The notes below the pieces were generated by a model that did no database searches, was not told the DNA's origin, and saw only the letters and a list, made by a program, of their open reading frames with translations. Of a stretch of 25,963 nucleotides of DNA, positions 25,153 to 25,500 are shown piece after piece (within the stretch, counting starts at the first letter, position 1; each line of letters starts with the position of its first letter). Source of the DNA: a virus; the UHGV virus genome UHGV-1408657. One strand, written 5' to 3'. Both the position numbers and the translations under genes were made by a program.

Positions 25153-25168
25153 ACCGATCGATTTAAAC

Positions 25169-25211
25169 GATCAATTTTAGAATATTGATCTATTAAAACT
25201 ATTTTTATTAT
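25169..25211 (+). promoter_or_regulatory. candidate promoter with GATC-containing inverted repeat upstream of the small lipoprotein gene
   Basis: Inverted repeat GATCAAT-n8-ATTGATC (25169-25190); three GATC sites within about 35 bp (25156, 25169, 25187); possible -35 TTGATC (25185-25190) and -10 TATTAT (25206-25211), spacer 15. Confidence 0.3.
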
Positions 25212-25260
25212 TCAATGCCATTGGTTATTTTTTGTTTAAATAATTAACTCTGGTATCGAA

Positions 25261-25500
25261 ATGAAAAATATAATTATTCCAGTTATTGTTTGCCTGGTGC
25301 TTTCAGCCTGTTCAGGACCTGTTCTGGAGAAACAGAAACCGGTTTGTCAGGCTGAGTTAATGTCAGGTGGGTTGACCCAGTCAGTACAGGTCTACGGTGT
25401 GCGAAAAGTTGCTAATCAGACTGAGTACAGAGCCGGTTATCCCTTTACCTGGCGATGGGTGAATAAAAGTAACTTCACCAGTTCGAATTGCCCTCAATGA
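25261..25500 (+). CDS. small lipoprotein at J-stf junction (candidate Cor-like superinfection-exclusion protein)
   Basis: 79 aa; MKNIIIPVIVCLVLSACSG is a lipoprotein signal peptide with lipobox LSAC; sits where cor/lom-type lysogenic-conversion genes sit in lambdoid phages; own AT-rich promoter region and terminator. Confidence 0.6.
   Translation: MKNIIIPVIVCLVLSACSGPVLEKQKPVCQAELMSGGLTQSVQVYGVRKVANQTEYRAGYPFTWRWVNKSNFTSSNCPQ

Follow-up and report, generated by a model that had tools for sequence, protein, structure and literature searches.

Cor is a textbook case of lysogenic conversion by receptor inactivation. The Cor homologues of phages phi80, N15, HK022 and mEp167 inactivate FhuA and exclude FhuA-dependent phages, a benefit that comes at the cost of reduced ferrichrome uptake (PMC3594210).

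The regulatory systems closest to the locus described below are those involving Dam and OxyR. In agn43 (flu), three GATC sites lie within one OxyR tetramer site; the half-sites are spaced by 22 bp, the transcription start precedes the site, and OxyR acts purely as a repressor. The opvAB operon of Salmonella has four OxyR half-sites and four GATCs, and its likeness to cor is one of logic. This logic is that of a phage-protected subpopulation maintained at a physiological cost (PMC4652898), and the same is predicted here for cor. The gtrABC operon of P22 and Salmonella, responsible for O-antigen glucosylation, belongs to prophages, modifies the cell surface, and prevents superinfection. Its regulatory site abuts the -35 and comprises three half-sites and four GATCs, which provide two alternative OxyR positions, AB activating and BC repressing. 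The gtr half-sites bind OxyR in gel-shift assays, and their spacing is consistent with reduced OxyR (PMC2909390). The mom gene of phage Mu is likewise under the control of Dam and OxyR (Hattman and Sun, as cited in PMC2909390). At mom, three GATCs stand upstream of the promoter, the OxyR-binding region adjoins the end of the preceding gene, the phage activator C is also required, and phase variation is not known.

The present analysis concerns a cor gene of a Citrobacter-type prophage, contained in a 25,963-bp stretch of viral DNA that was analysed as a whole and is referred to as the window. Judged from the sequence, the best reading of this locus is that cor is subject to a Dam/OxyR-type epigenetic switch, with a probability of roughly 60%.

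The cor gene and its neighbours

The open reading frame at 25261-25500 is, by its sequence, Cor, a member of the FhuA-blocking lipoprotein family of phi80, N15 and HK022. The relevant features are as follows:

24478..25152, plus strand: gp23-like gene, 224 aa, PHROG 425, last gene of the J-gp22-gp23 block
25261..25500, plus strand: cor, 79-aa outer-membrane lipoprotein precursor (ATG at 25261, stop at 25500)
25261-25308, plus strand: signal peptide of Cor
25309-25311, plus strand: codon of the lipid-modified Cys17

The N-terminus reads MKNIIIPVIVCLVLSAC followed by SG, and inspection of the sequence reveals the lipobox LSAC with Cys17. The NCBIfam equivalog model NF047972 ("phage exclusion lipoprotein Cor") matches residues 1-78 of 79 with 130.5 bits against a cutoff of 31, and PHROG 1119 is matched with E = 1.4e-26. 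Pfam, unlike these two collections, does not recognise the protein, and a PDB sequence search with Cor returned no solved relative. At the DNA level, a near-identity search with the region found no counterpart in a phage collection or in 5,426 E. coli genomes. An alignment of seven Cor sequences, including those of phi80 and T1-like phages, shows C17, C29, C77, and AGYPF (A58-F62) to be invariant.

The gene shares with cor of phi80, N15 and HK022 the equivalog HMM, the lipobox cysteine, AGYPF, the cysteine pair, the gene order, and the layout of promoter, operator, and terminator. It differs in protein sequence, with 51-56% identity (the range found in protein alignments with Cor of phi80, mEp and LAU1), and in its setting in a Citrobacter-type prophage, where Citrobacter FhuA is the putative target. 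The order J-gp22-gp23-cor-stf is common to the window, phi80, and LAU1. A preliminary description of this DNA had proposed a 79-aa lipoprotein and, between J and stf, a lysogenic-conversion gene of the cor type; the reading frame with its LSAC lipobox confirms the former, and the NCBIfam and PHROG matches and the synteny with phi80 agree with the latter.

By analogy with Cor of phi80, N15 and HK022, the protein would inactivate the outer-membrane ferrichrome transporter FhuA, leading to the exclusion of FhuA-dependent phages and colicin M at the expense of ferrichrome uptake. We know of no GATC operator for Llp of phage T5, the other protein to be compared with Cor. Llp is also a small lipoprotein that blocks FhuA and causes superinfection exclusion, according to its report (10.64898/2026.03.26.714494), but it belongs to a different sequence family and is the product of an early gene in a lytic phage.

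Promoter and terminator of cor

The intergenic spacer upstream of cor (25153-25260) has 23% G+C, compared with 53% for the window. The following transcription signals surround the gene:

25203-25208, plus strand: candidate weak -35, TTTTAT, placed from the conserved -10
25224..25231, plus strand: predicted -10 region of Pcor, with G at -14 (25224) and the hexamer TATTTT at 25226-25231
25513..25536, plus strand: intrinsic terminator from a terminator scan, AACCCGC-TTCG-GCGGGTT followed by a T-run

Transcription is predicted to start near 25239, which gives a 5'UTR of ~22 nt. The position of the -10 is supported by comparison: a TAnnnT hexamer stands at position 71 or 72 counted from the first GATC of the spacer (GATC1, described below) in all 10 cor lineages compared and in 39 of 53 diverse copies of the promoter cassette, at a fixed 39 bp past the start of the third (GATC3). 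The conserved -10 is homologous to the extended -10 TGGTATTGT annotated, together with a transcription start, in the phi80 record FN582354.1. Such an extended -10 is a feature of promoters of the phi80 type, which might work without an activator, a point that counts against the OxyR-switch reading.

Two other promoter assignments were tried and rejected. If TTGATC (GATC3) were the -35, the -10 expected 16-18 bp further on would be a poor hexamer that is not conserved, and the pair picked by a generic promoter scan (ATGCCA/AATAAT) is not conserved.

The terminator stem (25513-25530) consists of 7 bp closed by a UUCG loop, with a folding energy of -12.6 kcal/mol and z = -2.9. An A-run upstream of the stem makes the terminator bidirectional in appearance, and terminators are annotated at the equivalent place in phi80 and mEp213. 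With a predicted promoter and a terminator around a non-structural gene inside the late operon, cor is a self-contained transcription unit, i.e., a moron. An independent promoter and terminator had been part of the preliminary description, and both are backed by the homologous promoter and start annotated in phi80 and by the terminator scan and fold. Its further claim that a GATC overlaps the -35 (TTGATC, 25185-25190) is not supported, as the conserved -10 at 25226-25231 puts the -35 at ~25203-25208.

Architecture of the triple-GATC element

The stop codon of the gp23-like gene lies 4 nt upstream of GATC1, with which a symmetric element begins that is predicted to be an operator. Its parts can be described as follows:

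25156..25202, plus strand: predicted 47-bp dyad operator ("triple-GATC element"), GATCGATTTAAACGATCAATTTTAGAATATTGATCTATTAAAACTAT, at ~-83 to -37 from the predicted start
25156-25159, 25169-25172 and 25187-25190: GATC1, GATC2 and GATC3, with 13/18-bp spacing
25157..25171, plus strand: predicted distal half-site A, ATCG-ATTTAAA-CGAT, holding GATC1 and GATC2, 13 bp apart
25188..25202, plus strand: predicted proximal half-site C', ATCT-ATTAAAA-CTAT, holding GATC3 and starting 31 bp past half-site A
25169..25190, plus strand: inverted repeat GATCAAT (25169-25175)-N8-ATTGATC (25184-25190), the inner arms of the dyad
25179-25193, plus strand: alternative half-site AGAAtAttgAtCTAT at 22-bp spacing, overlapping the inverted repeat

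The three GATCs and the GATCAAT-N8-ATTGATC repeat had been noticed before, and all are present, with the GATCs at 25156, 25169 and 25187. The 7-N8-7 repeat exists as proposed, but it is merely the inner part of the 47-bp dyad with its two 15-bp half-sites. A second palindrome, CGATCG (25155-25160)-N7-CGATCA (25168-25173), had been missed.

Three GATCs within 35 bp form the tightest triplet among the 91 GATCs of the window, the next tightest spanning ~100 bp. From the composition of the spacer ~0.2 GATCs would be expected, and the probability of three or more is ~0.001; taken window-wide, GATC clustering alone is not significant. A switch of the pap/Lrp type was considered and rejected, there being no second GATC box ~100 bp away.

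Conservation of the element

Conservation provides the decisive evidence that the GATC element exceeds chance. Of 73 cor loci, 70, among them that of phi80, carry the pattern GATC-N9-GATC-N14-GATC in the 140 nt that precede the ATG, with identical 13/18-bp spacing; the loci were fetched by protein similarity, and the sample is therefore unbiased for the motif. The 13/18 triad is present in phi80, Enterobacter phage LAU1, and 49 phage records including HK022, HK75 and mEp phages. Lytic T1-like phages have cor and lack the element.

Across 10 diverged cor lineages, mean pairwise identity amounts to 0.80 for the element, 0.69 for the cor coding sequence and 0.61 for the rest of the spacer. Of the 47 element columns, 29 are kept in at least 9 of the 10 lineages, while the spacer columns vary freely. 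Similarly, the arms of the inverted repeat are invariant and the 8 nt between them variable. With the OxyR half-site consensus ATAGnTnnnAnCTAT as reference, T6 and A10 are conserved in half-site A, and the pattern ATCTnTnnaAnCnAT of half-site C' is conserved in the 53 diverse cassettes at positions outside the search pattern. The conservation of T6/A10 and of the half-site arm C.AT is not forced by that pattern. The earlier suggestion of an "operator or methylation-sensitive promoter" pointed in the right direction, the repeat and the GATCs being the invariant arms of a conserved, predicted protein-binding site that matches Dam-sensitive OxyR sites.

These data bear on an explanation in terms of SeqA. 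SeqA binds clustered hemimethylated GATCs, and three of them within 35 bp could act through SeqA and hemimethylation, producing a replication-coupled expression pulse or sequestration with no sequence-specific regulator. SeqA, however, requires GATC alone, yet 25 non-GATC positions are conserved too, among them the GATC-less C.AT arm at 25199-25202, and this explanation is very improbable.

The same cassette upstream of other prophage genes

The promoter cassette of ~100 bp also stands, at a fixed distance, upstream of a putative sRNA and of 12 or more small prophage genes that are unrelated. The genes that follow it encode Cor, other lipoproteins (one of them of 120 aa), small membrane proteins, and a secreted protein with a TonB C-terminal domain; the putative sRNA is ~65 nt long. 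Two other cassette families gave 0 and 1 match in E. coli genomes, indicating that they belong to other genera. No cassette was found at fun(Z), another conversion gene related to T5/FhuA, which occupies the moron site of P2, and Rfam searches of the window and the cassette loci returned no family.

The element coincides precisely with the upstream border of many different inserted genes, and J/stf in siphoviruses and G/FI in P2-like phages are moron hot spots. It could accordingly be viewed as a recombination joint, a "boundary" linker at the 5' edge of mobile moron cassettes with no regulatory role. This is quite improbable in view of the column-specific conservation, invariant arms, free spacers, and dyad symmetry, the fixed distance to the -10 hexamer and the ATG, and the resemblance of the element to known regulator sites. 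Column-specific conservation together with fixed distances marks a promoter element that binds a protein, as opposed to a patch of homology.

The range of phages limits what the binding protein can be. Phi80-like siphoviruses and P2-like myoviruses both carry the cassette before unrelated genes, which points to a factor encoded by the host. An inverted repeat upstream of a prophage gene is frequently an operator of the phage, and the preliminary description had offered an operator as an alternative; a repressor or activator supplied by the phage itself (an immunity repressor or late regulator, for example) is nevertheless a highly improbable ligand. The element is kept across immunity types (phi80, HK022, HK75, the mEp series, LAU1, Citrobacter prophages) and in P2-like phages, the phages bearing it have no regulators in common, and the cassette is not accompanied by a regulator gene.

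The presence of the cassette before at least 12 unrelated prophage genes suggests a general, transferable route by which prophages plug accessory genes into host epigenetic control. A more specific proposal, put forward tentatively as one possibility, is that a portable ~100-bp Dam/OxyR module, made up of the dyad, the -10, and a short leader, precedes many envelope-targeting morons of Enterobacterales. Receptor blocking and superinfection exclusion by lysogens would then be a form of bistable bet-hedging and not constitutive, even in phi80, N15 and HK022.

Resemblance to OxyR sites

Half-sites A and C' match two OxyR half-sites (ATAGnTnnnAnCTAT twice, spaced for a tetramer) at 16 of 20 positions with a 31-bp spacing, which was picked after the data had been seen. 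No other place in the 25,963-bp window scores as high, and the score was attained by one of 100 shuffled windows and one of 5000 shuffled spacers. The Toledano consensus with 22-bp spacing is matched at 15 of 20 positions at 25157-25193, again the unique best in the window (4 of 100 window shuffles, 26 of 5000 spacer shuffles). On the same scale, the proven sites of agn43 and mom score 14 and 13, respectively.

The arrangement of GATCs is also that of known switches. As is characteristic of Dam/OxyR switches, at least two GATCs lie within the predicted regulator site, with a 13-bp pair in one half-site. The 13/18 spacing is to be compared with 18/13 in Mu mom, 19/13 in agn43, of which it is nearly the mirror image, and 13 for the gtr pairs. 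Half-site A has the same form as GATC-II/III of agn43 (ATCGTTTATATCGAT), and the two sites can be set side by side as GATCGTTTATATCGATCG in agn43 and GATCGATTTAAACGATC(A) in the element. When the element is read on the minus strand, 18/20 and 9/10 positions are identical to agn43 over the two GATC-bearing parts. In contrast to agn43, the cor element lies upstream, at -83 to -37, with half-sites 31 bp apart. The non-GATC sequence of mom is only loosely similar.

Half-sites OxyR(A) ATCGGTAACAACGAT and OxyR(C) ATCGCTTGTATCGAT of P22 gtr likewise have the form of half-site A. The extended palindrome of gtr half-sites A and C (ATTGATCG-N7-CGATCAAT/A) is the same as that of the cassette half-site; in gtr half-sites of the form ATTGATCG-N7-CGATCAA the GATCs are 13 bp apart, and half-site spacing is 32 bp in gtr versus 31 bp here. 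The cor cassette differs from gtr in having two half-sites and three GATCs, an arrangement that allows one position only.

The fit to OxyR is not perfect. The textbook ATAG/CTAT arms appear here as ATCG, CGAT and ATCT, which is compatible with other LysR-type regulators as well, ATC-N9-GAT arms being generic among them. The strongly conserved, in fact invariant, CAAT/ATTG flanks fall outside the classical OxyR consensus, which leaves them unexplained. The dyad may consequently be bound by a different host regulator, either of the LysR type, e.g., HdfR, or an uncharacterised dimer or tetramer on TTGATCG/CGATCAA, with competition by Dam being optional. GATC methylation does block HdfR binding upstream of std (PMC6735912). 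However, the GATCs of std, located at -242 to -220, have a 13/9 spacing, and HdfR acts on the 9-bp pair (GATC-2/GATC-3, -229/-220), as opposed to 13/18 at ~-83 to -49 here, and the HdfR/std geometry was rejected. Half-site A is nearly identical to the gtr half-sites that bind OxyR in gel shifts (PMC2909390), and the GATC geometry fits three independent OxyR/Dam sites, so that a regulator other than OxyR is unlikely.

Iron control is a further alternative, with the repeat serving as a Fur box that would make the FhuA blocker respond to iron status. The sci1 T6SS promoter offers a precedent for a Fur/Dam switch. Cor itself blocks an iron transporter (PMC3594210), but the best match in the spacer to the 19-bp Fur box GATAATGATAATCATTATC is 11/19 and lies outside the repeat, and 93 windows in the sequence score at least 11. 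This alternative is scarcely credible.

Proposed mechanism of the Dam/OxyR switch

In the Dam/OxyR reading, two LysR/OxyR-type half-sites 31 bp apart, with three Dam sites, would lie directly upstream of Pcor. A tetramer of host OxyR would bind the element only when the GATCs are unmethylated. Bound OxyR would shield the GATCs from Dam, and Dam methylation would in turn block OxyR. Both states would be self-perpetuating, and cor expression would be set epigenetically, as in agn43, gtr and opvAB. In a minimal version of the mechanism, cor would be Dam-dependent, as is the case for Mu mom. The assignment to OxyR is based on resemblance; it is from the analogy with known systems that we infer OxyR as the binder, sensitivity to methylation, bistability, and the sign of regulation.

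As regards this sign, the position of the element fits OxyR-activated promoters (~-80 to -35) as well as OxyR(BC), the repressing site of gtr (~-77 to -31), and either state could therefore be ON. Lysogens of phi80 and N15 are classically described as resistant to T1 and phi80, which speaks against a sizeable OFF subpopulation in laboratory culture. This resistance agrees equally well with true phase variation and with a mom-like role, in which cor would be constitutively ON in Dam+ cells. A literature search covering superinfection exclusion, morons, methylomes, gtr, and std found no report of control of cor by Dam or OxyR.

Significance for prophage exclusion

If Dam/OxyR gating of cor is true, lysogens would be split into phage- and colicin-proof cells and cells competent for siderophore uptake, following the split-population logic of opvAB and gtr. 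Measurements and models of prophage exclusion would then have to change, for example efficiency-of-plating assays and predictions of escape from phage therapy. The element also provides a signature for finding new lysogenic-conversion genes and phase-variation candidates, namely GATCG-N7-CGATCAAT-N8-ATTGATC with an ATG ~105 nt past GATC1.

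The cor gene and its surroundings

The gene at 25261-25500 is, on sequence grounds, cor. The preliminary description had placed a lipoprotein here, at the position of cor/lom-type conversion genes, and NCBIfam, PHROG and the phi80/N15 arrangement of the locus bear this out. The NCBIfam equivalog 'phage exclusion lipoprotein Cor' gives a full-length match (130.5 bits, cutoff 31), and PHROG 1119, 'Cor superinfection exclusion protein', is hit at E = 1.4e-26; Pfam has no model for Cor. Identity amounts to 51-56% with Cor of phi80, the mEp phages and Enterobacter phage LAU1 and to ~35% with that of T1-like lytic phages, and Cys17, Cys29, Cys77 and AGYPF are invariant in the alignment. 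The gene order is that of phi80 and N15: J (20955-24164), gp22-like, gp23-like, cor and the start of the tail-fibre gene. The contig (GCA_032481555.1 JAWESO010000038.1) has Citrobacter prophages as its nearest relatives, and at the DNA level neither E. coli genomes nor sequenced phages match the region. Cor of HK022, N15 and phi80 inactivates FhuA, protects from FhuA-dependent phages and colicin M, and lowers ferrichrome uptake (PMC3594210).

Features of the cor locus
25156, 25169 and 25187: GATC1, GATC2 and GATC3
GATC1 with GATC2: a second palindrome, CGATCG-N7-CGATCA
25157-25171: half-site A, ATCGnTTtnanCGAT
25169-25175 and 25184-25190: inverted repeat, GATCAAT and ATTGATC, 8-nt gap
25188-25202: half-site C', ATCTnTnnaAnCnAT
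25226-25231: predicted -10 of the cor promoter (Pcor), TATTTT, a conserved TAnnnT, with G at 25224
25261-25500: cor, 79 aa, N-terminus MKNIIIPVIVCLVLSAC/SG, a typical lipoprotein signal with lipobox
25513-25530: terminator 3' of the stop codon, a GC-rich hairpin with UUCG loop and T-run (-12.6 kcal/mol, z = -2.9)

On re-reading the sequence, the coordinates and features in the preliminary description are correct, including the gene's own terminator (hairpin and T-run) and the AT-rich upstream region: the 108-bp spacer 25153-25260 has 23% G+C, against 53% for the window. The terminator hairpin has an A-run and a T-run on either side (25507-25536) and is called on both strands by the scan; at the equivalent place, phi80 record FN582354.1 has overlapping terminator annotations, one on each strand. 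The gp22-like (105 aa, PHROG 557) and gp23-like (224 aa, PHROG 425) genes, at 24161-25152, overlap the J stop and one another's start and stop codons and therefore look translationally coupled to J. Their database labels are 'outer membrane protein' and 'membrane associated protein'. Despite the moron label on gp23, both accompany J even in lytic T1-like phages.

A conserved triple-GATC dyad upstream of cor

The 47-bp element at 25156-25202 is a near-perfect dyad centred at about its position 24.5, with half-sites A and C' 31 bp apart, start to start. Its GATC triplet is the tightest among the 91 GATCs of the window. Taken alone, this tightness is not significant window-wide; conservation is the test that counts.

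Conservation was assessed at cor loci from 72 viral contigs and from 2 Citrobacter genomes, at 52-92% identity in cor. These loci were retrieved by protein similarity, so the sample is unbiased towards the GATC motif. Three GATCs with exact 13 and 18 bp spacing lie ~105 nt before the ATG in 70 of the 73 usable loci. The exceptions are a point mutant that has lost GATC3 (ATTAATC, L046), a variant with four GATCs spaced 7/13/14 (L069) and a locus whose upstream region is unrelated (L074); the first two may be useful as natural mutants of the element. The element is carried by phi80 itself and LAU1 and occurs in 49 phage records, among them HK022, HK75, HK140 and the mEp series. Across ten diverged lineages, mean pairwise identity is 80% in the element, 61% in the rest of the spacer, 65% at the gp23 end and 69% in the cor coding sequence. 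Positions 1-5, 7-8, 13-20, 29-36, 38, 42, 44 and 46-47 are retained by nine or more of the ten, while positions 10-12, 21-28 and 39-41 vary freely. Such column-specific conservation is the footprint of a protein-binding site, and the element is accordingly a predicted, conserved operator, as had been proposed for the repeat. A rival and much less likely reading takes it for a recombination joint.

Cor also occurs without the element, in lytic T1-like Sd1 and vojen, in Pantoea phage Vid5 and in an Stx-type phage. In Shigella phage Sd1 (L083) and Escherichia phage vojen (L084), cor is convergent to the J-gp22-gp23 block and is preceded by a long spacer in which the promoter-like sequences are ordinary and the GATC triad is absent.

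The cor promoter

An own promoter for the lipoprotein gene is supported by a conserved -10 that matches the phi80 Pcor annotation. The earlier assignment of TTGATC as the -35 lacks support, since no conserved -10 goes with it. All ten cor lineages share a TAnnnT at a distance of exactly 70 nt downstream of the G of GATC1 (position 71), with G at -14. Position 71 or 72 holds TAnnnT in 39 of 53 diverse cassettes (element, -10 and short leader), compared with at most 6 at any other position downstream of the element. Phi80 record FN582354.1 annotates the same site as the cor promoter, with -35 ATTATA, extended -10 TGGTATTGT and, 8 nt beyond it, a transcription start; the upstream dyad is annotated in none of the records inspected. 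Homology predicts the start in the window near 25239, which would put the element at about -83 to -37. OxyR occupies about -80 to -35 at promoters it activates.

Likeness to Dam-sensitive OxyR sites

The dyad resembles OxyR sites of proven Dam sensitivity in the sequence of its half-sites, the placement of its GATCs and its spacing. Three experimentally established sites were taken from public records: E. coli agn43 (AACGATCAATATCTATTTTATCGATCGTTTATATCGATCG; GATC spacing 19/13), Mu mom (ACGATCGAATCAATTAAATCGATCGGTAATACAGATCG; 18/13, the mirror image of the cor spacing) and P22 gtr (ATTGATCGGTAACAACGATCAAT ... ATAGATAAAAACTAT ... ATTGATCGCTTGTATCGATCAAA). The gtr region has GATC pairs 13 bp apart and half-sites 32 bp apart, 1 bp different from the cor spacing, and its half-sites A and C are the same extended palindrome as cor half-site A. 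Broadbent et al. (PMC2909390) demonstrated OxyR binding to the gtr sites, its loss upon methylation, and the fit of the 32-bp spacing to reduced OxyR. The cor element lies only ~5 bp upstream of the position equivalent to the repressing OxyR(BC) site of gtr. By analogy, its placement would thus fit activation and repression by OxyR alike.

Against the OxyR dimer consensus ATAGnTnnnAnCTAT (Toledano, as quoted in PMC2909390), two half-sites at 31 bp score 16/20 in the element (next best in the window 13), and the classical 22-bp arrangement scores 15/20 (next best elsewhere in the window 12); agn43 and mom score 14 and 13 on the same scale. The 31-bp score was reached in 1/100 window shuffles and 1/5000 AT-rich spacer shuffles, the 22-bp score in 4/100 and 26/5000. 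Because the 31-bp spacing was picked after seeing the data, these scores are supportive, not decisive.

Control of Pcor by an OxyR/Dam-type operator is given a probability of roughly 0.6. OxyR would bind the unmethylated dyad, and binding and Dam methylation would be mutually exclusive. The outcome could be heritable ON/OFF lineages, as in agn43, gtr and opvAB, or simple Dam-dependence, as in mom. Genuine bistability across the cassette family is the more doubtful part. The classical description of phi80 and N15 lysogens is that they resist T1 and phi80, which counts against bistability with a large OFF fraction. If OxyR/Dam control is true, a textbook constitutive exclusion trait becomes epigenetically gated.

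Much less probably, the GATC sites could act through SeqA. A Fur box is attractive, given that the iron transporter is what Cor blocks, but the best consensus match is 11/19 and Fur control is effectively excluded. The HdfR/std switch was also considered and rejected; its geometry differs, with std GATCs 13/9 apart at -242 to -220.

Cor, its position and, in one phi80 record, its promoter were already known. A full-text literature search, with older cor papers outside its reach, returned no description of the conserved triple-GATC dyad upstream of cor, its likeness to Dam/OxyR switches or its recurrence before many other prophage genes. The putative cor switch has a distinct layout: one tetramer site with two half-sites 31 bp apart and three GATCs, upstream of an extended -10-type promoter.

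Reuse of the cassette before other prophage genes

IMG/VR was scanned for GATC-N9-GATCAAT-N8-ATTGATC (18 fixed bases), which gave at least 120 stretches against ~3 expected by chance (own estimate). Among the 121 sites listed, only 47-49 precede cor. The rest lie before small ORFs of at least 12 unrelated kinds, whose ATG follows GATC1 by 98-112 nt; dyad, -10 and short leader are found before such ORFs within IMG/VR loci L087-L206 (e.g. L088, L099, L107, L168, L197, L206).

Genes behind the cassette other than cor
39-aa membrane peptide: 14 sites among those listed
120-aa lipoprotein, PHROG 25729: 10 sites among those listed
47-aa protein: 7 sites among those listed
115-aa secreted protein with TonB C-terminal domain (TonB_C, PF03544): 56.7 bits
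76-aa lipoprotein
several single-pass membrane proteins

G5, T7, C13 and the T...aA.C.ATT arm after GATC3, which the pattern does not force, are conserved across cassette families. As a cross-check, loci of two of these genes were retrieved by protein. The 13/18 triad lay 104-108 nt upstream in 62/77 loci of the 120-aa lipoprotein and 15/15 of the TonB_C protein, which confirms the link between cassette and gene. The contexts include the siphovirus J/stf junction and the P2-like myovirus G/FI junction, both classical moron sites. Judged by this distribution, the element behaves as a portable promoter cassette. A site for a phage repressor would be another reading of the dyad; since phages with unrelated regulators share the cassette, the factor reading it is most likely host-encoded. 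This would suit OxyR; another LysR-type or other host factor reading the dyad is a less likely rival.

About 17 loci have, in place of an ORF, a conserved ~65-nt non-coding unit behind the cassette. The unit comprises a stem-loop (GCGGC...GCCGC), a single-stranded AAACACAAA stretch and an intrinsic terminator, and folds at -25.3 kcal/mol (z = -3.3). It contains no ORF, has no Rfam match and looks like a candidate prophage sRNA.

Loci with the ~65-nt unit
L087, L094, L098, L106, L110, L128, L135, L137, L141
L143, L146, L150, L162, L165, L189, L204, L205

Within the 120-aa lipoprotein loci (L212-L289), two sublineages have a completely different upstream region, indicating that the promoter was swapped within one gene family. 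The TonB_C protein (L168, L187, L290-L304) is labelled 'Rz-like spanin' by PHROGs; one speculative role for it is that of a periplasmic TonB decoy blocking phages that depend on TonB. One further locus, L097 (IMGVR_UViG_3300036796_000024, ~5400-7860), has the J-gp22-gp23 block as in the window and a nearly identical stf N-terminus (MSAGTLTLTNNSAAV.G.GT.F.TE.AAGDFIVVT.GGVPYTLP.KSVES); the place of cor is taken there by an 80-aa lipoprotein in reverse orientation and a 95-aa membrane protein driven by the cassette.
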